From the IMG/VR virus record IMGVR_UViG_3300002448_000002, positions 1,569 through 65,568 of that record: a stretch of 64,000 bases of DNA, one strand, 5' to 3'. This document shows, in pieces, positions 2,881-64,000 of the stretch; position 1 is the stretch's first letter; every line of letters starts with the position of its first letter. Position numbers and translations under genes: made by a program. Source of the stretch: a virus. The notes beneath the pieces were generated by a model. The model was not told the DNA's origin. It saw only the letters and a list, made by a program, of their open reading frames with translations, and ran no database searches.

Positions 2881-4718
2881 GCATTCGACTGTGCGATATG
2901 GAGCTCTATGCGTTCCGATCATTCGTGTCCCCGGAGCATGTGGAGTTTCCTTCTAGACCGGGGCTGTATCTGCTCGGTGGACGTAATGAAGTGGAACCCC
3001 TTGTAGGTGCGAACGGTACGGGCAAGAGTTCGCTATGGGGAGCCTTGTGCTGGGCTCTCTATGATCGATATCCGAACGGTTTGCGGTCCACCTCCATGGC
3101 GACGTGGGATGCAGGGCACTCTCCGGGCGTCACATGCGCGCTCGAGGTGGATGGAGTCCCGCACACTGTAACCCGCACCTGGAAGCCGAACAAGCTGCTA
3201 CTGGACGGAGAGCCGACCGACCAGGAGGTTGTAGAGAATCTGATTCAATGCGATATGTCGCAGTTCCTTCACTCGGTGTACATTGGTCAGGGTGCAAAGA
3301 CGTTTCTGGATTACTCATCTATGGAACGTGCTTCGTTCATATCCACATTGCTGAATCTGGACGTATGGGACCGGGCCAGAGATCACGCTTCGAAGACGTC
3401 CAATACGGCTGCGAAGCAAAGGGAAAGGTTTGATAAGGAGGTCGAGCGTCTGAACGGGTCTATCGACGCTCTACGGTCCATGTCGCTGCAGGAGCAGATA
3501 GACAAGTTCGAAGAGGACCGCAAGTCCGAAGAAGAACAGGTACGAGTTCGATTGAATCGTTTGAACTCTGACATAGCGAAGCTGGACTCCATCGAATCGG
3601 AGAACCGATCAAAGAACAAGGGTCTGCAAAAGCAAGTCAAAGATAAACAGCAGGAAGTGGAGGAGCTGCAACGTGCCCTGTCCGACGAATCGCGACGACA
3701 CAAAGAGGCTCTCAGCAAAGCAGCGGTAGCCCGCAACGAGCACGAAAAGGCGGTAAAGGATTTCGACCTGGTGAACAAAGAGGTCAAGTGCCCGACGTGT
3801 GGATCTGACCTATTGGGAGGTCGGCACGTAGACATTCGCAAGGAAATTGAAAAGCAGATGTTCCAGTTGGCGGCTCAGTATCGAATACTGGACAAGGAAC
3901 GAAAAGAGCTGGCGATTACTGTGCGCGAATTGGAGGAATCGTTACAGGAGGTACGTGCCGAATACGAAAGTGCATCCAGGACCTTGGCTACTCAGACAGC
4001 AGATGCCAGAGCCGCACGGGTGTCCAGAGCCCCTATAGTTTCAGAACGGGACGTCACAGAAAGAAAGCTCCGGGAGTTGGAGACCCGCACCAATCCATTC
4101 GAAATGCGGGACAGGGAACGGAGAAAGGATCTGGGTAAGCACTACCGACGCCGCGGTCGTGAAATGGAAGCTAGGGATACGTTCGGACGAGAGGCAGCGA
4201 TGTCCTCGTTTTGGTCGAAGGGGTTTGGTCAGATTCGATTGGAAATGATCGGGGAAGTAATGAAGCGTCTTGAAAACGAATGCGCCGTGAATCTTACCGA
4301 CTTGGGACTTCCTGAATGGCACGTTGAGTTCTCATTGGACCGTGAAAACAAAAGCGGTACGGTGACCAAAGGCTTTCACGCCATGGTGCATTCCCCGCAT
4401 AACGAAGGCCCTGTTCCTTTCGAAGCGTGGAGTGGTGGGGAGGCCCAGAGGCTACGTCTCGCTGTAGCCATGGGGCTGTCCGACATGGTGCAAGATTTCA
4501 CATCCTCACAATGGAACTTTGAGGTGTGGGATGAACCTTGCACATGGTTAAGTACAGATGGTATAGTCATGTTGTTGGACGCACTCAAGGAACGCGCCCG
4601 ACGCACAAGCAAGGTGGTCTGGTTGGTGGATCACCGTTCTCTGAATGCCGGTTCATTCGATGGAGTGGCGACAGTGGTAAAGGATGAGCACGGCAGCCAG
4701 TTTCTATGGGAGGAATGA
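2877..4718 (+). CDS. Rad50/SbcC-like (T4 gp46-like) ABC ATPase
   Basis: Walker A GANGTGKSS, long coiled coil with CPTCG zinc hook, signature WSGGE, Walker B VWDEP, H-loop VDH. Confidence 0.92.
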   Translation: MSIRLCDMELYAFRSFVSPEHVEFPSRPGLYLLGGRNEVEPLVGANGTGKSSLWGALCWALYDRYPNGLRSTSMATWDAGHSPGVTCALEVDGVPHTVTRTWKPNKLLLDGEPTDQEVVENLIQCDMSQFLHSVYIGQGAKTFLDYSSMERASFISTLLNLDVWDRARDHASKTSNTAAKQRERFDKEVERLNGSIDALRSMSLQEQIDKFEEDRKSEEEQVRVRLNRLNSDIAKLDSIESENRSKNKGLQKQVKDKQQEVEELQRALSDESRRHKEALSKAAVARNEHEKAVKDFDLVNKEVKCPTCGSDLLGGRHVDIRKEIEKQMFQLAAQYRILDKERKELAITVRELEESLQEVRAEYESASRTLATQTADARAARVSRAPIVSERDVTERKLRELETRTNPFEMRDRERRKDLGKHYRRRGREMEARDTFGREAAMSSFWSKGFGQIRLEMIGEVMKRLENECAVNLTDLGLPEWHVEFSLDRENKSGTVTKGFHAMVHSPHNEGPVPFEAWSGGEAQRLRLAVAMGLSDMVQDFTSSQWNFEVWDEPCTWLSTDGIVMLLDALKERARRTSKVVWLVDHRSLNAGSFDGVATVVKDEHGSQFLWEE

Positions 4719-5206
4719 AGATGAAACTTTTGCAGGTTCCCGAGTTGGATCACACCATTGTGGTGTCCAAAACCATCACCACTGAAACAGCACACAGGCT
4801 CACAAACTACGCGGGAAAGTGCGCGCACATTCACGGTCACTCCTGGCAGTGGACAGTGAAGGTGCGGTGCGGTCTCATGTCCAATGGATTGGCCATTGAC
4901 TTTGGAGACATCAAACAGGTTTTGAACTCTCGAATCCATGACCTTTTTGATCACGCTATTGTGCTGCACGAGCTGGATCCTTTGGTGGGCTATGCGTCGG
5001 ATTTGGGAATGGAAATCGGCGCTATGCTGGCTCCTATTCCGGGTGGTGAAACGCGTGTTGTAGTGGTAGACGCAAACCCGACTTCGGAAAATATGGCACT
5101 GTATGCGAAGAAGGTGCTTTGGGAGGACTTGCGAACGAGGAATCCAAGTGTCGCATCTGTGAAAGTGATCGTCAACGAAACCTGTACTTCAGCAGCGGAG
5201 GTGTGA
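4715..5206 (+). CDS. queD: 6-carboxy-5,6,7,8-tetrahydropterin synthase
   Basis: AHRL..Y.GKC..IHGHSW, IDFGDIK, FDH, NPTSENMA and V.VNET motifs; ATGA coupling at 4715. Confidence 0.92.
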   Translation: MKMKLLQVPELDHTIVVSKTITTETAHRLTNYAGKCAHIHGHSWQWTVKVRCGLMSNGLAIDFGDIKQVLNSRIHDLFDHAIVLHELDPLVGYASDLGMEIGAMLAPIPGGETRVVVVDANPTSENMALYAKKVLWEDLRTRNPSVASVKVIVNETCTSAAEV

Positions 5207-5207
5207 G

Positions 5208-6107
5208 ATGAACCCAGAAAGTGAACAGTGGTCGGAGCGAGCAGACGAGCCTGGCAAGCTCAATGTACTCGGTGTCTTCCTGACGGTGGACGGAGAGGCG
5301 ACGGGATTCCACATGGGCACGTGGACCGTCTTCGTTCGATTGACAGGGTGCAGGGTGGGGTGCCGATGGTGTGACACCAAGTACTCGTGGTCGATCAAGC
5401 AGGGTGAGCTTGTGACGCCCCCGGAGCTGTCCTCGTTGGTTATGGAGATGATGCAAGGCGCGACGAAGATCTCTATCACGGGAGGCGAACCTCTGGAACA
5501 GGACAGCGTTGCGCTGCGAACATTTGTGGCGGACATGATCAACCGGGGATTCAACGTCAGCATGGAAACCTCGGGTACGGAATGTATGTATGATTTTTCC
5601 GATTGGTTGTCCAAGAACGCTAACCGGGCGAGGATGTCATTCGTCGTGGACTACAAGCTCCCGTCGGCGCACGCCCTCAAGCCATTCATGTGGCCGAACT
5701 ACAGCAACATGGACGACTGGGACGTGATCAAGTTCGTGGTCGGAGACAGCAACGACTTCGAAGAAATGGTCAAGGTTGCCCGACATATGCGCTTCCTTAG
5801 CCACACCACCTGGAAGCGTGGCTGGATGCCTCGTCTTGTCGCGTCTCCGGTGGTGACGGACACCCCAGGTTCTGAATCCAAGATGACCCCGTTCCTTCTT
5901 GCAGAGTCCCTCAAGAACCACGACGACCCCATATGCCGGCAGATCGGCATGAACATCCAGGGACACAAGTACATTTGGGACGACAACGCACGCGACGAAG
6001 AGGAGGGTGTGAAATGGGAGGACGTACTCGCCGACGTGCGCCAATCCTCGACGAACAACGAGTCGGATCTGACGGCAGTTCAGAGGGGAGGACTTCACCA
6101 CTCCTAG
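5208..6107 (+). CDS. queE: 7-carboxy-7-deazaguanine synthase (radical SAM)
   Basis: F.TVDGEA, FVRLTGCRVGCRWCDTKYSW (CxxxCxxC), ITGGEPL, METSG, DYKLPS, IKFVV, QGHKYIW; follows queD. Confidence 0.92.
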   Translation: MNPESEQWSERADEPGKLNVLGVFLTVDGEATGFHMGTWTVFVRLTGCRVGCRWCDTKYSWSIKQGELVTPPELSSLVMEMMQGATKISITGGEPLEQDSVALRTFVADMINRGFNVSMETSGTECMYDFSDWLSKNANRARMSFVVDYKLPSAHALKPFMWPNYSNMDDWDVIKFVVGDSNDFEEMVKVARHMRFLSHTTWKRGWMPRLVASPVVTDTPGSESKMTPFLLAESLKNHDDPICRQIGMNIQGHKYIWDDNARDEEEGVKWEDVLADVRQSSTNNESDLTAVQRGGLHHS

Positions 6108-40832: not shown

Positions 40833-41203
40833 CCGAGCATTTCGAATGGTGGGATTCCTGGGGACCACAATACGAGGCTCTACTGGAAATAGAAAAGGCG
40901 GGATTTAAGGTAAAGGCACTGGAACGACTGCCCGAACTGTCAGATACCGCTAACGAGTTGCTTGCACACTACAGCAATTTGGTACGTAGGTGCCCGCAAC
41001 CGTTTCCGTTTTCAGAGATTGAGGCGTATTGTCGTTTTCAGGGAATCCAGTCATTCGATGATCGGGAAGAGTTTCTCGTGTACCTAGACGCGATATTGGA
41101 AGTGTTAAGTGCTCTGAGAAGAGCCAAGGCGGAAAAGGAGGCAGGGAAAAGTGGCACACCGTCTGGTAACACTACTATCATTCAGCGAAAGGGACTGGGT
41201 TAA
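40823..41203 (+). CDS. Tail assembly chaperone gpT-like extension (fused to gpG by -1 frameshift)
   Basis: -1 frame GKLTEHFEWW...PFSEIEAYCRFQGI...EEFL..LDA ends at the tape measure start. Confidence 0.75.
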   Translation, partial: GKLTEHFEWWDSWGPQYEALLEIEKAGFKVKALERLPELSDTANELLAHYSNLVRRCPQPFPFSEIEAYCRFQGIQSFDDREEFLVYLDAILEVLSALRRAKAEKEAGKSGTPSGNTTIIQRKGLG

Positions 41204-44200
41204 TGGCTAGCCTAGACGTCAGGATAGACCCGACCCAAGCGAGACAGGGTTCCCAGGTAGTCCGACGCGAGCTTCGGAGCATCGGTTCCGAAGCTCGTAC
41301 CACCGGCTCAGCTGTACGTCGGCACATAGGTGGGGACTTCCGCACGGCCTCCGAACAAGCGAAGCGTTCCGTCGCAGGCATCGCCAGTTCCCTTAGGGGT
41401 GTTGGTACGATTCTAGGCGGGTTGGTCGGCTTTACCGGCGTCACATCTTTGGTCAGGGCCTTTGCGTCGGGGCAGGCTGCTGCAACAACGTTCGAAGGAT
41501 CCATCCAGGATCTGTCCGCAATCACCGGGGCGGTAGGAAACGACCTAGAGTTCTTTACAGCAGCCGCCCGAGAGATGGGAGCTACGACCACCTTCTCAGC
41601 GGCGCAGGCAGCAGACGCCTTTACGTTGATCGCGTCTGCCAAGCCGGACCTGCTCAGCAACGCGGACGCTCTGAAGCAGGTGACGCAGGAATCGCTTAGC
41701 CTCGCGGAAGCCGCTGGTATCACGTTGCCCGACGCGGCGAACGTCCTGGGCATTTCGCTCAATCAGTTTGGTTTGGCAGCCGACCAGGCAGGTAGGGTGA
41801 TCAACGTTCTCGCCGCTGGTGCCAAGTTCGGAGCGTCTCAGATAACGGACACGGCGGCCGCGTTGAAGAATGCAGGCGTCACAGCACAAACGGCAGGCGT
41901 ATCGTTCGAAACAATGAACGCTGCGATCCAGGTGCTTGCGTCGGTAGGCTTGAGAGGAGCCGAAGCCGGTACCCCGCTTCGAAATATCCTCCTCAAGTTG
42001 GAGCAGCAGTCGGAGAGCTTCCGACCGAGTGTTGTTGGATTGAGTCAGGCGCTGCAGAACGCCTCTGACGAGTTCACCACCACGTCAACTCGTGCAAAGG
42101 TGTTTGGTTCTGAGAACATCAACGCCTTTAACGCACTGTCGAATGGAATCCCGTTGCTAAGGCAACTGGAGGACAACATAACGGGCACGGGTGTTGCATA
42201 TGAGCAGGCGGCCATTCGCGTTGACGATTTGGAAGGTGATTTGGCGGCACTGAATTCTGCTTGGGAAGACTTGAACATTGCGATTAGGGATACCGAGAGC
42301 TTGCGGAGTACGGTGCAGGGGTTGACTGATTTGTTCCGCTTGCTAGCGGGTCACATTGAGCGGATAAATGAATTGCAGGAGGAAGGCTTTGTACCTGCGA
42401 CACAGTACGACTACTTGAGTCAAGATCTTACGAACTTGGACGCCCGTCTTGGGCAGTTGACCGAACGTTTGCAGGATCTACGGCAAGAGAAAGCAGACAT
42501 AGAGCGGACCTCCGATCAGGATCTCATTTCATTGCAGTCACTGGAGGACCAGATTGTAGCAGTGCGCACCGCTGCTTATGAGGTGGGTCAAGCAAGAGCC
42601 GCTGTACTGCAGGGTCAAGACCAAGACCAACAGCAGATCCTAGACGATCTTAGCCAGGTGCAGGATCGTTTGGTAGACATCACACTTGAGTACTTGAACC
42701 TTGGCAGGCGTAGAGAGGAAGCTCTGGCGTATGACATGTCCGGTCGGCTGTTTCCTTTCGACTACGAAGGTGAGAAGCAGAGGTTGCAGGAAGCGTTAGA
42801 GGAAGCGAAAGCTCTTCGGGAACGCTTGTTTAGTGACTTGGAAAGAAGTACAGCTCCTTCACCTCAAGTTGAGGAGTACACGGATAACCTGGATCGTTTG
42901 AACGCCGAGGTGGGCAGTTTGATTGCGTTGCAGGATCAGTACTCAGTTGCCTTGCGGGAGGGTTCGACGGAGGTTGCTCAGATAGAAGAGCGTATCGTTG
43001 AATTGAGCAACAGCATCACGGATCTGCGGGCGGAACAGTTGCGAGCTACTAATCAGGCAAACTGGGATTCTGTGACAGCACAAGTTGAGAACTACAGGGA
43101 TGCAATAGTACGATTGGCCGACGCGCAACGGGTGGCTGGTCAGGAAGCAAGAGCTACGGAGCAGGCCAACGCCCCTCCAAGCACAGAGCAGTTAGATCCA
43201 TTGGCCCGTTTGCGCGGTCTTAACACGATTCAGTTGTTGCGACGCGCACAGACATTGCTTCGCGAGGTACGCACTCCACAAGAAACGTTGGATTTGGAGC
43301 GGCAGAGAATTGAGTTGTTCCGTGAAAGAGGAATCCTTACGGACGAATTAGCGCAACGAGCACGTGTACTCGCCCAAGAGGAATTTGATGCAGCTACCCA
43401 AGGGGTGCAATCTGGTCGGGAGCTTGTGGACGTCCACAGAGCTTTGGTGGATGCGCTGCTTCCCAGACAGTCCGCTCAGGACCTCTACGCTCAGAGGGTA
43501 GCGGATATAAACTTGCTGGAGCAAAATGCACAGAAGCTGGGGTTGTCCGACATTGACATTATCCGTTTGCGAATTGGTGCCTCGCGTGACCTGTCCGACC
43601 AGCTTGGAGAGCTCGAGCAGGCGCAACGCGAGGTGAATGACGTTACCGCCCAAGTGGTGCAGAGGTACCTTCCGACCGTAGCAGCGCAGCAGAGGTATCA
43701 TCAAGCGTTGCGTGATATTGAAGAAGCAAACTTGGGTGTGGTGGACACCGAGCAGGCGAAGATAAATGCCCTGCGCGAATACGAGCGTGCGATAGGTACG
43801 ACCACATCTTCGCTGGATCGAACGGTGGATGAAACGAAAGACGCCGTGCAAGTAATTCGGGGTGAGTTTGAGACATTGGGTGGGGACGTTGCGGGAGCAT
43901 TGGCGTCTGCCTTCTTGGGCGCCGAGACGCAGTTCGATGGTTTTCTAATTCGTTTGGCACAACGGGCGTTATCCGCGCAGTTGGAAGCGAATGTGATCAA
44001 CCCGATATTGGGATTCGCGAGCACCTTCCTATCGGCGTACACGGGAGGGTTTTCGTACAACTACGCTTCCACTGGAGGTGCGAATCCAGGACTTTCTGGG
44101 GCGTTGCAATCCGGTGGGGCAGCCAGAGCGGGTGGGAGCTACATAGTAGGTGAGGCCGGTCCCGAGCTTTTGACGCAAGGTGCTCGAGGAGGTTTTGTGA

Positions 44201-44409
44201 CACCGTTGTCCCAAGGACGGGGTGGAGGTGTGACGGTAAATATCTACTCGGGTGATGCTCAGGCCGAGGTGGAGGAACGAGAAGGGCAGTCCGGGGAACA
44301 AGTGATAGACGTAACCGTAGGAAGCGCTTTGGGTCGTATGAGTGACAGCGGTGAGCTGGATGCGTTGTTCGGTTCCTATGGCGGTCGGCGTTCTCTAACT
44401 CCGAGGTAG
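41203..44409 (+). CDS. Tape measure protein (TP901-type)
   Basis: MASLDVRID, AAREMGATTTFSAAQAA, LAAGAKFG, heptad/helical repeats, C-terminal GG....G..Y.VGEAGPEL. Confidence 0.92.
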   Translation: MASLDVRIDPTQARQGSQVVRRELRSIGSEARTTGSAVRRHIGGDFRTASEQAKRSVAGIASSLRGVGTILGGLVGFTGVTSLVRAFASGQAAATTFEGSIQDLSAITGAVGNDLEFFTAAAREMGATTTFSAAQAADAFTLIASAKPDLLSNADALKQVTQESLSLAEAAGITLPDAANVLGISLNQFGLAADQAGRVINVLAAGAKFGASQITDTAAALKNAGVTAQTAGVSFETMNAAIQVLASVGLRGAEAGTPLRNILLKLEQQSESFRPSVVGLSQALQNASDEFTTTSTRAKVFGSENINAFNALSNGIPLLRQLEDNITGTGVAYEQAAIRVDDLEGDLAALNSAWEDLNIAIRDTESLRSTVQGLTDLFRLLAGHIERINELQEEGFVPATQYDYLSQDLTNLDARLGQLTERLQDLRQEKADIERTSDQDLISLQSLEDQIVAVRTAAYEVGQARAAVLQGQDQDQQQILDDLSQVQDRLVDITLEYLNLGRRREEALAYDMSGRLFPFDYEGEKQRLQEALEEAKALRERLFSDLERSTAPSPQVEEYTDNLDRLNAEVGSLIALQDQYSVALREGSTEVAQIEERIVELSNSITDLRAEQLRATNQANWDSVTAQVENYRDAIVRLADAQRVAGQEARATEQANAPPSTEQLDPLARLRGLNTIQLLRRAQTLLREVRTPQETLDLERQRIELFRERGILTDELAQRARVLAQEEFDAATQGVQSGRELVDVHRALVDALLPRQSAQDLYAQRVADINLLEQNAQKLGLSDIDIIRLRIGASRDLSDQLGELEQAQREVNDVTAQVVQRYLPTVAAQQRYHQALRDIEEANLGVVDTEQAKINALREYERAIGTTTSSLDRTVDETKDAVQVIRGEFETLGGDVAGALASAFLGAETQFDGFLIRLAQRALSAQLEANVINPILGFASTFLSAYTGGFSYNYASTGGANPGLSGALQSGGAARAGGSYIVGEAGPELLTQGARGGFVTPLSQGRGGGVTVNIYSGDAQAEVEEREGQSGEQVIDVTVGSALGRMSDSGELDALFGSYGGRRSLTPR

Positions 44410-45320: not shown

Positions 45321-45778
45321 TGAACGATCACATACCAACGTGGATTAGGACGTACATCGGCATTCCGTTTGTTACGGGAGGTCGTGCGAGGTCTCAGGGG
45401 GTGGATTGCTGGGGCCTTGTGTGTCTCGTTTACGAAGAACAGTTTGGGATAGAGCTTCCACACTACTCGAACGGCTACGCGGATGTAGTTCGGGATTGCA
45501 AACAGATTAGTCGCTTGATTGAACGTCACAAAGAACCGATGTTTGAAGTGGTGACGGAAGACGTTTCGCCGAGTAACGGAGTAGTGGTGTTACTACATGA
45601 GCGTGGGCTTCCGCTTCATGTGGCACTTTACGCGGGAAAGGAAAACGGCACCAAGTACGTACTGCACACCACGCAAGATAGAGGCCACTCGTACCGGGAG
45701 AGGTTAAATGGACCAGAGCTTAGTTGTAGCGAACCAATCTTCTTCAGATATAAAGGAGGTGATCCCAAAGGAGGGTGA
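45320..45778 (+). CDS. NlpC/P60 tail-tip peptidase (gpK-like)
   Basis: YIGIPF..GGR....VDCWGLV..VY, HVALY, VLHT. Confidence 0.88.
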   Translation: MNDHIPTWIRTYIGIPFVTGGRARSQGVDCWGLVCLVYEEQFGIELPHYSNGYADVVRDCKQISRLIERHKEPMFEVVTEDVSPSNGVVVLLHERGLPLHVALYAGKENGTKYVLHTTQDRGHSYRERLNGPELSCSEPIFFRYKGGDPKGG

Positions 45779-47891
45779 CCTCATAGTATCCATTGGTGCG
45801 CTACCATTCGAGAGTGGTCTCCGCAAGGTTCTTATGGTGCCAGGAGGTGCTAGAAAGACAATTGCGGATATCCTCGGTCCCGTTCCCGAGTGCGATAGGC
45901 ATTCCATAACGGTGCAGTTCAAAGGGGAGGTGATACCAGAGGATCAGTGGGATACGTTTATGACGGGCGAAGAAAGGTACGCTTTGTACATTAACGTGGT
46001 GCCACACAATCGGAACGTCCTGGCAATCGTCGCGGCTGTCGCCCTGTACATTTTCGCCCCGTACGCTGCGGCGTACATCGCAGGTGCATCTTCTGGGTTT
46101 GCTTACACAGCAGCTTTGGCAGGTGTTACGGTAGTTGGTTCCTACGCTATTGGGCAGATGTTGGGCCCCGAGGTTGGTGGTCAGAATGACATCACAAGGG
46201 ATCCGCAAAGGTTTGGCATTCAGTCCACGCAGAACTCAGTACCTTCCCGGCGCAATTCTGTTCTGTGCGTTATGGGTACCCATAGGGTAGCGCCTTATTT
46301 TGCTTGTAGGCCTTACGTGTTTGTGGATGGTCCAGATACACTTGTCTTCAGAGGTTTGTATGATTTTGGTTACGGTCCAATAGATTTTGATGTAGACAGT
46401 TTTAGATTTGGAGACTCTGCAATTTCAGGTTTTCAAAATGCCACTGTTGTCACTCACGAAGGTTTGCCAAACACTTTAAGTGAACTATCGGATTTTTCGG
46501 AAACGCATGACCAGCGGCAAGTAAACAAACAGCTGGAAGGCACTTCTGAGGGTGCTGGTGAGTGGTCCGAGTTTTCATACAAGCCGGGGGTAAATAGAGC
46601 TGTATTGATTGTATCTTTCAATTCTTTGCTCAGACTTAGCAAGAAGGGGGACAAAGAAAACAGAACTGTTACTTTTGAGATTCAAAAGAAGGAAGGAACT
46701 GGAGTGTGGTCAAACAGCAATGAAGTGAGTGCTACTGCTGCTACGACTTCACAGCACTTTCTTGAAATGAACATTTCATTGACTACAAATGTAGGAGGTT
46801 CGATAAGGATTAGAAGATCAACATCGAACGAAGATGATGTAAGAGTTCAAGACGTTTCTATTCTTACTCATGTAGATTTCATAACTCCTGAGACACCTGT
46901 AAAGGCGCTGGGCAGAGCACTTGCTTTCGTTCAAATAACAGCCGACAGAAATTTGAATAACATAGTGCAGACATTTACGGCCATTTGCACTCGCAAGATT
47001 CCGTTTTACCAAGGTGGAGCGTGGACGGCTCCTAGGGGTGGTGCAGGAGCGTCGAGTCCTGCATGGCAGTTCGCCTCAATCCTTCGTGGCCCTGGTATCG
47101 TGGCTCCCATACCAGATGAAAACATAGACGCGGAGGCCTTGGCAGAGTGGGCCTCTCGCTGCGCTACAAGGGGTTACCGGTACGATGGTGTGTGGAACAA
47201 TGCGGAAGGTATCTGGGATCGTTTGAATACTGTAGCGGCGTGTGGTCGCGCTTCGGCTACATTGGTAGACGGGAAGGTGTACAGTGTGGTGGTTGACCAG
47301 GAAAAGACAGTGCCGGTAGACCTGATCACCCCCAAGGATACCTTGCAGTTTACCGGAACAAAAGCCTTTAAGGATCCACCGCACGGGTTCAGAGGTTTCT
47401 ATAACGACAGGGACAACGAATATCAAGAATCCGAGATCACCGTTTACGGGCCTGGTAGAAACGAAACGAACAGCACGAACATTGTCGCTGTTCAGTTAGC
47501 ACCTTTGGGGATAACCACTGCGGCAGAGGTACACAAGTTTCTCAGATATCTGCTTGCGAACGAATTGCTGCGTCCTGAATCTTTCAGGGTCATCCAGGAC
47601 ATAAAGCATTTGAGATTGCAGAGAGGGGATTACGTAGACCTCCTGTACGATGCGCCGTTGATCGGTCTGGGAGCCGCGAGGTTGATAGAGACCGACGCTT
47701 CCCGTAGAGGGGATGGTAGGTGGGGCGCGTTTTCCTTGGAGGAAGATATTGAACTTAGCACAGGGCAGAATCACACCGTTCGGTTTCAAACATTGTCCGG
47801 TGAGGCTGTGATTCTGCCCATTGTGAAATCTCGCAACGTTTCGATTCCTACACAAAGTGTTCGAGTCCAGGCAACTGGTGTTCGTGATTAA
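45708..47891 (+). CDS. Tail tip / host-specificity J-like protein, N-terminal part (gpI-like plus hub)
   Basis: Ubiquitin-like N-terminus and hydrophobic segment, GTHRVAP, YDFGYGP, SSPAWQF..IL, L.EWA..C, ITP.D..QF, RPESF, LQRGD.V; stops inside the hub domain; start uncertain. Confidence 0.85.
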   Translation: MDQSLVVANQSSSDIKEVIPKEGDLIVSIGALPFESGLRKVLMVPGGARKTIADILGPVPECDRHSITVQFKGEVIPEDQWDTFMTGEERYALYINVVPHNRNVLAIVAAVALYIFAPYAAAYIAGASSGFAYTAALAGVTVVGSYAIGQMLGPEVGGQNDITRDPQRFGIQSTQNSVPSRRNSVLCVMGTHRVAPYFACRPYVFVDGPDTLVFRGLYDFGYGPIDFDVDSFRFGDSAISGFQNATVVTHEGLPNTLSELSDFSETHDQRQVNKQLEGTSEGAGEWSEFSYKPGVNRAVLIVSFNSLLRLSKKGDKENRTVTFEIQKKEGTGVWSNSNEVSATAATTSQHFLEMNISLTTNVGGSIRIRRSTSNEDDVRVQDVSILTHVDFITPETPVKALGRALAFVQITADRNLNNIVQTFTAICTRKIPFYQGGAWTAPRGGAGASSPAWQFASILRGPGIVAPIPDENIDAEALAEWASRCATRGYRYDGVWNNAEGIWDRLNTVAACGRASATLVDGKVYSVVVDQEKTVPVDLITPKDTLQFTGTKAFKDPPHGFRGFYNDRDNEYQESEITVYGPGRNETNSTNIVAVQLAPLGITTAAEVHKFLRYLLANELLRPESFRVIQDIKHLRLQRGDYVDLLYDAPLIGLGAARLIETDASRRGDGRWGAFSLEEDIELSTGQNHTVRFQTLSGEAVILPIVKSRNVSIPTQSVRVQATGVRD

Positions 47892-61468: not shown

Positions 61469-61623
61469 GGTTTGTAGCAAAGCACATGAAAGAGTGTGGT
61501 CCCGGAGAGGTGTGGTGGATTCTTGATACCAGCACCGACCGCTACACATCCTGGTCACTTGGCAATGGGAACGAGGCACGGGCAATTGCCTCGAAACTTG
61601 AAACAGGAGAGATGCAATCGTGA
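61465..61623 (+). CDS. Small hypothetical protein (52 aa, below the ORF-track cutoff)
   Basis: AAGGAGG RBS, GTGA coupling at both ends; MRFVAKHMKECGPGEVWWILDTSTDRYTSWSLGNGNEARAIASKLETGEMQS. Confidence 0.45.
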   Translation: MRFVAKHMKECGPGEVWWILDTSTDRYTSWSLGNGNEARAIASKLETGEMQS

Positions 61624-61817
61624 AACCAATCAATCTCAATCCACTGCTCACCGTATGGCTTGCGACGGCCCCGGCTGTATCGCGTGCCCTCGAAGACGGC
61701 GACGTGACCGTGAACGAGGCAATCGACATTGCCGCTACGGCTGCGAAGGCGTGCGCGAAGGCGAAGGGAATCAGCAATACGGTGATCGCGACCATCAAGG
61801 AACCGGAGGCGGAGTAG
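61620..61817 (+). CDS. Small hypothetical protein
   Basis: AGGAG RBS; coupled. Confidence 0.5.
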   Translation: MKPINLNPLLTVWLATAPAVSRALEDGDVTVNEAIDIAATAAKACAKAKGISNTVIATIKEPEAE

Positions 61818-61818
61818 C

Positions 61819-62130
61819 ATGCTTGACGATCATCCAATCGCCCGCTGGGTAAGTGTCGCTAGCTTGGTAGCGGGCGTGGGCGGCGGTGCTTGGTTCATCA
61901 TGGACGAACGGGAGCGGTCCATAGAGCAGACTGAGCGTCTCGCGGAGATTCGTCGAGAACAGGAAGTCATCCGTAGGGAGCTAGCGACACAGACGATTTC
62001 CTTGGAGGAGATTCGCGACGAGCAGGACCAGATAGCCGCCCGACAACGCTGGCTCGCAAGTGAGGTAAATCGCGAGGTGGGTTCTTTGGCAATCGACGTG
62101 GGACGCCTGATGGAGAGGACGGAAGAATGA
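61819..62130 (+). CDS. Single-TM plus coiled-coil protein (possibly lysis-related)
   Basis: WVSVASLVAGVGGGAWFIM followed by heptads. Confidence 0.5.
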   Translation: MLDDHPIARWVSVASLVAGVGGGAWFIMDERERSIEQTERLAEIRREQEVIRRELATQTISLEEIRDEQDQIAARQRWLASEVNREVGSLAIDVGRLMERTEE

Positions 62131-62585
62131 TTACCCTAAGCCCGCTTGTGTACAAGACGGTACTTTTCAAGTATCGGTTGCTCAAGCCTTACCAGCACTT
62201 CTGGCTGTCGAATAGGGCGAAGCACGCCGCGATCGCCGAGGTGCACAAGAACCAAGGTCAGGATGTTGTACTTCGACTGACTGGCAAACAGTACGAAGGC
62301 TCGCAGGAAGTGATCATGAATTGCGAGGGACTCCTGATACCGGAGGGGTTCGGGTGGGATGGTGCGACCAAAGCCATTGACACCGCGAACAGCATGGAGG
62401 CTTCCCTCGTCCATGACGTGATCTGCGACGCTATCAACGACGAGCAGTTGGAATGGAAGTGGAGACGTATCGGAGACGTTGAGTTCCGACACATACTCAA
62501 GGCAGTTGGCATGTCTTGGGTGCGCCGATGGCTGTGGTGGTTGTTCGGAGTGCGACTGTACGCCACGGTCATCAAACCCAAGTAG
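62127..62585 (+). CDS. DUF1353-like protein
   Basis: IPEGFGWDGAT, ASLVHD.IC, R..GD..FR.IL...G....R.W....GVR. Confidence 0.7.
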   Translation: MITLSPLVYKTVLFKYRLLKPYQHFWLSNRAKHAAIAEVHKNQGQDVVLRLTGKQYEGSQEVIMNCEGLLIPEGFGWDGATKAIDTANSMEASLVHDVICDAINDEQLEWKWRRIGDVEFRHILKAVGMSWVRRWLWWLFGVRLYATVIKPK

Positions 62586-62596
62586 GAGACAACGTG

Positions 62597-63097
62597 ATGC
62601 AGTTAGAGGACTTCCTCGCCGCTCTTGGAGAAAGCGGCAACATAGCGTCGGCACACGCTCGCGCGGCAAGCTTGCGATTGCTCGACGAATACCTGGAGCC
62701 CCCGGACGAGGATGGAATCCGGGATTTGAAAACGCGCAAAGTACGAGTGACGTTGCCCGACGGGAAGAAGGTGGTCGTACCAATTCCTGAATGGGCAGCT
62801 CTGACAGGAGGCGTCAGCGACCTAGATAGGTTGGTGTACGTCCTCCGCAATGTTCGCGTAAAGCTACCGGAAGGTACGGTGACTGGCAAGAAGGATACGC
62901 GAAAGGTGCCCGCCTCGAATACGAGCATGACCTTGAGGCGGGGTGGTGCGATGGCGAACGAGATGACGGCGGACGTTCGCGTCGAGTTCAAAATGGGGCG
63001 GCCTCCCGAGCTCCTAGGAGTTCTTCGGGACAAGCTCACAGTGGCGCTTATGGACGCCTTGACCGCAACGCAGAAACAAACTGAAGAGGGCAAGTGA
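62597..63097 (+). CDS. DUF2589-like protein A (tentative)
   Basis: L.DFL.AL.....A......L..L..Y, V.V.LP..K.V.VP, C-terminal V.V.FK...PPELL..L.D.L. Confidence 0.45.
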   Translation: MQLEDFLAALGESGNIASAHARAASLRLLDEYLEPPDEDGIRDLKTRKVRVTLPDGKKVVVPIPEWAALTGGVSDLDRLVYVLRNVRVKLPEGTVTGKKDTRKVPASNTSMTLRRGGAMANEMTADVRVEFKMGRPPELLGVLRDKLTVALMDALTATQKQTEEGK

Positions 63098-63702
63098 CAA
63101 TGGATATCGAAGCACGCGAAGCAAACTATATGGACAGCCTCGGCGGGAGGCTGGCGGGCATTCTGCTCCCGCTGGCGAATACCCACGTCGAAGCGCAGCG
63201 CGGGTACGCGCAGACGGTTGCGGAGATGGCCTCCCAGCCCGTCCCCATGAAGATCGTCATGCGGTTCCGCGGGGAGGAGAAGGTACTCGAGATCGAGATG
63301 CCCATGTTCCTCCTCACCTCTCTCCGCCCTATCGACTACGGCGAGGGCACGAAGGTATCGACAAGGTTCTCCGTCAGTGCGCGCGATTCGTCCAGCACCA
63401 ACGTCGGCAGCAAGGTCGAGGCCGGCATGCAGGCAGGGTGGGGGCCGGTGTCGGCGTCCTTCAAGGCCGAGGTCACCGTCGGGCACGAGCAGCAGCGGGA
63501 ATCCTCCTGCGAGAGCACCGTGGACGTGGACGTCTTCGTGATCACCCGCGAGCCGCCTGAACTGGTGTCCAAGCTAGGCGACATCTTCATCAACTTCTGC
63601 AAGACCCTGGTCGAGGGTGAGGTGAAGAGGATGCTGGCCGAGTCCGAAGACGTGGACGCTCTGCCCGCACCCGAGGCCGCCCCGGCCGACGCAGCCGAGT
63701 AA
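63094..63702 (+). CDS. DUF2589-like protein B (tentative)
   Basis: L..IL.PL....VEAQ, IEMPMFLL..L.PI, Ser/Thr-rich hairpin SSTNVGSKVEAGMQAGWGPVSASFKAEVTVGHEQQR, PPELVSKL.DI. Confidence 0.5.
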   Translation: MTMDIEAREANYMDSLGGRLAGILLPLANTHVEAQRGYAQTVAEMASQPVPMKIVMRFRGEEKVLEIEMPMFLLTSLRPIDYGEGTKVSTRFSVSARDSSSTNVGSKVEAGMQAGWGPVSASFKAEVTVGHEQQRESSCESTVDVDVFVITREPPELVSKLGDIFINFCKTLVEGEVKRMLAESEDVDALPAPEAAPADAAE

Positions 63703-63742: not shown

Positions 63743-64000
63743 ATGGACACCACGACCATTCTTGTCATAGTGGCGGCTGTAGAGGGCTTGGTAGGTATCG
63801 CAGTCCTCCTCACCATGTTTTGGAAACTGGCGCAGAAGGATGCCGAACGGGCTCGGGACATTCAGGCTGTGCGAGAGATGACGGAGGAGAACTCCAAAGA
63901 ACTCAAGCAGCATGACGAGGATTGCAAGGCGGATCGCCGTGAAACTTCGGAGCGATTCGAGGAAGGTTCCAAGAAGATGGCCGTGCTTGCCAACAACCAG
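63743..64000 (+). CDS. TM plus coiled-coil protein, 3'-truncated at window edge
   Basis: MDTTTILVIVAAVEGLVGIAVLLTMFWKL then heptads; GGAG RBS; open to the window end. Confidence 0.55.
   Translation, partial: MDTTTILVIVAAVEGLVGIAVLLTMFWKLAQKDAERARDIQAVREMTEENSKELKQHDEDCKADRRETSERFEEGSKKMAVLANNQ

Follow-up and report, generated by a model that had tools for sequence, protein, structure and literature searches.

A two-gene DUF2589 module with an amphipathic beta-hairpin at the late end of a tailed phage genome: a possible membrane-permeabilizing pair

The holins of phages are of small size and span the membrane with one to four transmembrane alpha-helices, and to our knowledge only helical holins and pinholins open the inner membrane in phage lysis. 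Beta-barrel membrane pores are formed by Pepco and EACC1, two kinds of small protein from the prokaryotic cytoplasm that have amphipathic helices at their base (bioRxiv 10.1101/2025.11.14.688446). DUF2589 (PF11655) is a family that is widespread in bacteria, archaea and phages and is catalogued in Pfam with no assigned function. Only passing mentions and no published function were found for it in the searchable literature: an A. fulgidus tandem array of DUF2589 genes, AF0414-AF0417, is mentioned in passing (PMC3949148), and a B. fragilis DUF2589 gene is listed in a transcriptome table (PMC11402942). Here we describe two adjacent genes, A and B, in a 64,000-nucleotide stretch (the window) that covers bases 1569-65568 of the linear, 66,041-bp IMG/VR virus record IMGVR_UViG_3300002448_000002, estimated to be 75% complete. 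The source phage is uncultured, tailed and siphovirus-like, and the A/B locus is a divergent, minimal member of the catalogued but uncharacterized DUF2589 family.

The product of gene B was compared with the PF11655 profile (length 154, gathering cut-off 23 bits) and scored 19.9 bits (E-value 0.001) over 109 of the 154 profile positions, just below the cut-off; a six-frame search gave an E-value of 3.5e-5. All 12 close homologs of B (P0003-P0014) contain PF11655, and further relatives score 48.3 bits (P0017) and 35.5 bits (P0018). In total, gene B has 16 relatives with 22-57% identity (the fragment P0016 counted), nearly all of them with PF11655. The B-family profile matched a profile of the DUF2589 proteins from the larger cassettes described below (hhalign 97.6%, E-value 4.5e-12), and the nearest ESM-Atlas clusters of B are DUF2589. 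Because its homologs lie above the cut-off and the profiles match, membership of gene B is secure at the family level, despite a single-sequence score below the cut-off.

Gene A has no direct Pfam match and no homologs in the word index. An exhaustive phmmer search identified nine small, full-length relatives (within P0019-P0029), of which P0024, P0028 and P0029 (phmmer E-values 1.3e-7 to 4.9e-4) exceed the PF11655 cut-off with 24.1, 29.4 and 26.3 bits, respectively. The nearest ESM-Atlas clusters of A are also DUF2589 (0.92; structural TM 0.57/0.64), several of them mostly viral. Gene A is a divergent DUF2589 member, placed in the family only transitively. The original prediction, made from the letters alone, had likened both genes to DUF2589; the hidden Markov model search that it proposed bears this out, for B by the near-threshold match and the homologs above the cut-off, and for A through its homologs. 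Multi-stretch phmmer matches of A (residues 38-130) to two giant proteins, P0022 and P0027 (2,284 and 7,241 amino acids), were judged to be repeat or low-complexity similarity and set aside; P0022, the one of the two giants that was scanned, is an MBG-repeat adhesin sorted by the type IX secretion system.

PADLOC, NCBIfam and PHROGs gave nothing usable for A and B (PHROGs holds no family for canonical DUF2589 proteins), and a sequence search of the PDB gave no matches. Relatives of the B family were found neither in IMG/VR, the JGI metagenomes and the GTDB genomes nor among GenBank phages, and a DNA pattern for AGWGPVSA returned just two chance matches.

Compared directly, A and B are only weakly similar (BLASTP E-value 0.031 over 26 residues around PPEL). 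Their family profiles align over 93 columns, including the proline-containing strand and the PPE motif (hhalign E-value 4.8e-5, probability 68%), and on the strength of this alignment we regard A and B as a real, anciently diverged DUF2589 pair. Both have an N-terminal helix, a proline-containing strand and a C-terminal helix capped by PPE. Among 21 sequences, cellular members included, P68 of B is invariant and P153 nearly so (at least 90%); in the A family, P64, P137 and E138 are nearly invariant. The two genes had originally been described as paralogs with a shared layout, and diverged DUF2589 paralogs is what the profile alignment and the shared motifs make them. The peptides quoted in that description, FKMGRPPELLGVLRDKL and VITREPPELVSKLGDIF, and a 39-residue hairpin are all found in the translations.

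The TGA that ends gene A (63095-63097) shares bases with a GTG at 63094, and the two make up the GTGA on which a claim of coupled genes had been based. The genes are indeed adjacent and translationally coupled. The GTG is, however, not the favored start of gene B: the GAGGG ribosome-binding site lies only 3 nt from it versus 9 nt from the ATG at 63100, so that this ATG, 2 nt past the stop of A, is the most likely start. No promoter-like or terminator-like site was predicted between the genes of the tightly packed local string. Two further pairs of A-family and B-family proteins come from contigs of equal size, P0019 with P0015 (2,353 bp) and P0026 with P0016 (7,917 bp); these equal sizes suggest that the A and B families have stayed paired in at least two other phage-like contigs. 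Identical A and B are also encoded by an 89,568-bp contig, and B homologs were found on contigs of 44-88 kb.

The most distinctive element of B is an amphipathic beta-hairpin, rich in serine, threonine and glycine and with an aromatic GWGP tip. One face is hydrophobic on both arms (V102, V106, A108, M110, A112, W114 on the first; V117, A119, F121, A123, V125, V127 on the second), and the opposite face carries N, G, K, E, G, Q, G and S, S, K, E, T, G. Along the B sequence, the beta-periodic hydrophobic moment peaks at residues 97-125, with values up to 2.0, and the hydrophobic/polar alternation exceeds that of about 98% of shuffled sequences (p about 0.02). The sequence VGSKVE.G..AGWGPVSASF.AEVTV is nearly invariant in homologs whose identity elsewhere is 40-57%. 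Members as distant as those of cells and gut phages still have a hairpin rich in serine and threonine, and its tip is aromatic or hydrophobic (GWGPFS, KYWFFS, KFWFAS, AKWGPF). Moment peak, alternation and conservation all agree with the alternating Ser/Thr/Gly-rich hairpin that had been read from the sequence. Gene A has a short charged loop at the hairpin site instead.

A structure of B was predicted with AlphaFold2 from a 21-sequence alignment (predicted local distance difference test, pLDDT, 71.9; predicted template modeling score 0.57; an 8-sequence alignment gave a pLDDT of 45). The modeled core (pLDDT 77-94) packs helices 3-45 and 154-183 on strands 47-56, 59-68, 85-94 and 135-149; residues 94-135 are folded as a hairpin with a pLDDT below 50. 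A protruding hairpin of low confidence on a confident core is what would be expected of a mobile element. Foldseek of the model against the PDB gave nothing significant (best E-value 0.049, to SecB; rows to phage neck proteins above 0.1), and an exhaustive VIA-align search gave helix-pair matches only (best Z 4.7). A search of BFVD with the same model matched one phage protein (E-value 3.6e-4). The predicted core of B is thus an alpha/beta fold without a solved match. The hairpin had been likened to the stem of aerolysin-type pore formers; its amphipathic alternation stands, and no structural likeness was found in the Foldseek and VIA-align searches above. Neither protein has a transmembrane helix (Kyte-Doolittle maxima of 1.12 for A and 0.86 for B, with no 19-residue window reaching 1.6) or a signal peptide, their N-termini, MQLEDFLAALGES and MDIEAREANYMDS, being acidic and without a hydrophobic h-region.

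The two genes differ in composition. Gene B has a GC content of 0.643 and a GC content at third codon positions (GC3) of 0.861, the highest among 32 genes measured; the values are 0.581 and 0.665 for gene A and about 0.55 and about 0.63 for the window. The capsid gene has a GC3 of 0.762, in line with the prediction that B shares its bias toward C- or G-ending codons. Such a GC3 suggests either very high expression of B or a foreign or separate origin.

Cellular DUF2589 genes were surveyed in 401 genomes centered on one Verrucomicrobiota genome, and three loci were read. PF11655 was found in 10 of the 401 genomes, and 9 of these 10 carry two copies within 2 kb, in line with the tandem pairs in bacterial genomes named in the original prediction. 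One locus consists of a LytTR regulator, a B-type protein, a 268-amino-acid partner, a second DUF2589 protein and a zinc-ribbon gene. In another (genome G309, L028:2948-10994), two hairpin-type DUF2589 genes in tandem and two partner genes are immediately preceded by genes for a LytS-like histidine kinase and a LytTR response regulator and by an AraC-like gene; this locus is a two-component-controlled cellular cassette. The third, set among housekeeping genes on both sides, encodes a B-type protein along with two partners.

A similar cassette is present in five gut-phage fragments, the 4-kb phage fragment MT839761 and four IMG/VR contigs (69-112 kb), which represent one fecal source type and few lineages. 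It comprises a LytTR gene (not in the MT839761 fragment and not seen in L033 and L034), a B-type gene, a gene for a protein of about 264 amino acids, a second DUF2589 gene and a zinc-ribbon gene (not seen in L034). Each cassette thus holds two DUF2589 copies. It is followed by 0-3 small genes and then by an endolysin of PG_binding_1 plus Muramidase architecture without a signal peptide, which places the end of the cassette 1-4 genes upstream of the endolysin. Gene A has no clear ortholog among the cassette members overall (hhalign 0.1-5%); as candidate orthologs, the 264-amino-acid partner and the second DUF2589 protein were rejected at 0.1% and 5%, respectively. The analysis of neighborhoods in other phages, which had been proposed along with the original prediction, had a divided outcome: the hairpin protein is found near a signal-less muramidase in five fragments, and no endolysin was found in the present record. 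The endolysin association is real in some phages, it is not universal, and it is not seen here.

In the window, the plus strand carries all long genes, and the record runs from replication and accessory genes to head and tail genes, among them those for the tape-measure protein (41203-44409) and a J-like hub protein (45708-47891). The A/B pair lies at the far right end, 3' of the tape-measure, J-like, giant fiber and other large tail-end genes, and the record ends roughly 1.9 kb beyond gene B. The features of this end are collected in Table 1. The DUF1353 gene is tied to its neighbors on both sides, its start overlapping the preceding gene (ATGA) and its TAG stop overlapping the ribosome-binding site of gene A. 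The block formed by the DUF1353 gene, A and B is flanked by two genes for proteins with a transmembrane segment plus a coiled coil, which have only weak matches to Rz-like spanins. No lipoprotein o-spanin was recognized beside them. A setting among small membrane genes had been predicted, and these neighbors downstream of the tail genes, two of them weakly Rz-like, provide it; the surroundings of A/B look like a lysis region. No canonical holin was found in the record, and the genes between 59.7 kb and the end of the record yielded no protease domain. The signal-anchored Cys/His-rich protein at the record end has no Pfam or PHROG match. Two upstream open reading frames (ORFs) of 214 and 360 amino acids were considered as hidden endolysins and have no Pfam, PHROG or PDB match.

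Table 1. Features at the right end of the record. Positions are those of the window, except where L001 coordinates are given.
Feature	Coordinates	Strand	Evidence or remarks
Small ORF	61620-61817		First of local gene string
103-amino-acid gene: marginal N-terminal transmembrane segment plus coiled coil	61819..62130	+	phrog_7584 Rz-like spanin, weak, E-value 1.1e-4; hydropathy 1.59
152-amino-acid DUF1353 gene	62127..62585	+	PF07087 23.9 bits; phrog_1158 E-value 4.8e-12
AGGAG ribosome-binding site of gene A	62584..62588	+	8 nt before ATG; read from sequence
Gene A, 166 amino acids, hairpin-less divergent DUF2589 paralog	62597..63097	+	ORF, phmmer homologs, hhalign, ESM Atlas
GAGGG ribosome-binding site of gene B	63086..63090	+	Within end of gene A, 9 nt before ATG 63100; read from sequence
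Gene B, 200 amino acids, hairpin-bearing DUF2589 protein	63100..63702	+	ORF, PF11655 match, homologs, hhalign, AlphaFold2 model
Beta-hairpin of B, residues 98-129	63391..63486	+	Arm 1 T100-W114, turn G115-P116, arm 2 V117-H129
Gene C, 106 amino acids: strong N-terminal transmembrane helix plus coiled coil	63743..64000, continuing to about 64063 past window (L001:2144-2464)	+	Hydropathy 2.64; phrog_739 Rz-like spanin, weak, E-value 0.002
Signal-anchored Cys/His-rich protein, beyond window, runs off record end	L001:2482-2874		Motif GGKDGWGGHH..GEYHCH, several Cys

In the best-supported reading, which is tentative and which we hold to be possible without giving it an even chance, A and B would form a membrane-permeabilizing late module that acts from the cytoplasm. 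The pair would be a minimal two-gene DUF2589 module, expressed with the late genes of the lysis region. Both proteins would be made in the cytoplasm, each with a core of two long antiparallel helices on a four-stranded sheet, and B would extrude its amphipathic hairpin of roughly 30 residues. On oligomerization of B, the hairpins would insert from the inner side of the cytoplasmic membrane and form a beta-sheet or barrel in it. Late in infection the membrane would thus be permeabilized, either in a step that resembles or assists the action of a holin and gives a signal-less wall hydrolase access to the wall, or by collapse of the membrane potential. In the assembly of B, hairpin-less A might serve as a partner, cap, nucleator or inhibitor, on the model of holin/antiholin pairs or of two-component pore formers. 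The gene pair, its family, the hairpin pattern with its conservation, and the place in the genome are observed; oligomerization, membrane insertion and the link to lysis are steps that we infer, and the pore, lysis, exclusion or toxin function named in the original prediction is a reasonable hypothesis. It is doubtful whether the idea extends further, to DUF2589 A/B pairs as a new class of cytoplasmic-face beta-hairpin pore formers that here replace or assist a helical holin and that have so far gone unrecognized as a core component, both of phage lysis and of cellular cassettes for release or death under LytTR control.

Several observations weigh against a membrane-permeabilizing role in lysis. 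A six-frame search of the whole 66-kb record for endolysin domains (PF00959, PF01510, PF01464, PF13539, PF11860, PF00182, PF08291, PF05838) found none, and Pfam scans of about 38 ORFs likewise gave no endolysin. Such a gene may lie in the missing quarter of the genome; with none in a 75%-complete record, the local link to lysis comes down to the two weak spanin-like matches. The PHROG of the upstream DUF1353 gene is annotated as a tail assembly chaperone. In cells, the three Verrucomicrobiota loci show no wall hydrolase by eye, and the muramidase family PF11860 is absent from all 10 DUF2589-positive Verrucomicrobiota genomes; simple export of endolysins therefore does not describe the family. 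No aerolysin-type or other solved pore former is among the Foldseek and VIA-align matches of the B model. Toxin stems usually conserve only an alternating pattern and not a sequence, so that the near-invariant sequence of the B hairpin is unusual for a stem and could mean a tight protein-protein interface. Finally, neither high expression nor foreign origin, the two conditions suggested by the codon usage of B, is typical of holins.

Some of the same evidence fits a soluble oligomeric scaffold or sheath, in which the DUF2589 core would polymerize and the hairpin would serve as a strand-swap or beta-augmentation interface rather than insert into a membrane. A packed interface would explain why the hairpin sequence, and not merely its pattern, is nearly invariant in the B family; a GC3 of 0.86, above that of the capsid gene and the highest of the 32 genes, would suit an abundant structural protein; the B fold matches nothing solved, hence no pore precedent applies; and cellular DUF2589 members occur without wall hydrolases. 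We nevertheless consider a scaffold unlikely. A full hydrophobic face on both arms, together with an aromatic tip that recurs in very distant members, would be costly on a soluble surface, and both the endolysin context in five phage fragments and the membrane-protein neighbors in this record speak for a different role. Composition can also be taken as a sign of separate or recent acquisition, since B (64% GC, GC3 0.86) is unlike A and the neighboring genes. A and B would then be a horizontally acquired, host-directed accessory module of the moron type, unrelated to phage lysis and serving superinfection exclusion, as an abortive-infection-like toxin or in counter-defense. Other accessory genes are scattered through the phage genome, and the cellular DUF2589 cassettes under LytTR or two-component control lie outside prophage genes in the parts read. 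This, too, seems improbable to us: no PADLOC defense model matches, A/B are joined by translational coupling to the late genes around them and lack a separate promoter or terminator, and the pairing of A-family and B-family proteins is apparently kept in two other contigs.

The position of the pair directly 3' of the tail genes, and of the DUF1353 gene with its tail-assembly-chaperone PHROG, raises the question of a role in the virion. A and B might be packaged or bound to the tail tip, with the hairpin piercing the host membrane at entry and forming or lining a channel for DNA ejection; the high GC3 of B resembles that of structural genes. DUF2589 is, however, also present in non-prophage cellular cassettes with regulators, gut-phage members adjoin an endolysin and a LytTR regulator and not tail genes, and the weak Foldseek matches to proteins of the phage neck lack significance. 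We hold a virion role to be very unlikely.

Other parts of the genome were noted in passing. An ORF at 26637-27233 matches the Proteasome subunit family PF00227 (23.4 bits, E-value 5e-5), which is unusual for a tailed phage. At 4706-6107, a PTPS/QueD-like gene (PF01242) adjoins a radical S-adenosylmethionine/QueE-like gene, a pair that points to a pathway for 7-deazaguanine modification of DNA. The closest relative of the RecA-like protein of the phage (42% identity) is encoded on a 65.9-kb contig, JBAZHQ010000001.1, which was binned into an Opitutaceae metagenome-assembled genome and may be a related phage genome. Relatives found via the capsid protein are short fragments without DUF2589.

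The combination of a pore-toxin-like hairpin on a signal-less protein with the endolysin and LytTR contexts leads to a concrete and cheaply testable hypothesis, that of a beta-type device breaching the membrane from the inside out. If the hypothesis is right, phage lysis would gain a component of a new kind and a mechanistic tie to gasdermin-like and Pepco-like cell-death pores. The local context is weaker at this locus than in the gut-phage cassettes; its minimal two-gene form makes it a convenient test case.

Compared with known lysis systems, A/B resemble holin-endolysin-spanin cassettes in their position past the tail genes and in their small flanking genes for transmembrane-plus-coiled-coil proteins with weak Rz-like matches; in addition, a signal-less endolysin is encoded next to the homologs in other phage fragments, and the proposed job is that of a holin. 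Unlike holins, A and B have no transmembrane helix and would need to insert a beta-hairpin, and the record yielded no endolysin. Like aerolysin- and hemolysin-type toxins, B has an alternating Ser/Thr/Gly-rich hairpin; it measures about 2 x 14 residues, and its hydrophobic-aromatic tip presumably resembles the aerolysin stem loop. Unlike in these toxins, there is no signal peptide on either protein, and the modeled core of B is alpha/beta and not an elongated beta-sandwich. Pepco, EACC1 and the bacterial gasdermins are likewise small and signal-less and combine amphipathic helices with beta-hairpins; their hairpins form membrane pores from within the cell, which is a precedent for the proposed mode of action. 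They are defense effectors licensed by cleavage, whereas A/B are a phage late gene pair with no adjacent protease and no sequence or fold match to them.

A/B also resemble the DUF2589 cassettes of bacteria, archaea and gut phages. This locus differs from them in its minimal two-gene form, with the hairpin-less gene first and the hairpin gene second, and in the divergence of the B subfamily, which leaves the score of B itself slightly below the Pfam cut-off. The LytTR regulator, the partner of 230-300 amino acids, the zinc-ribbon gene and the adjacent muramidase of cassettes L027-L034 are also missing here. What A/B share with these cassettes is the family itself, an arrangement as adjacent, diverged paralogs, an N-terminal helix, a strand with an invariant proline, a hairpin that is rich in serine and threonine and aromatic at its tip, and a C-terminal helix capped by a P-x-x motif.

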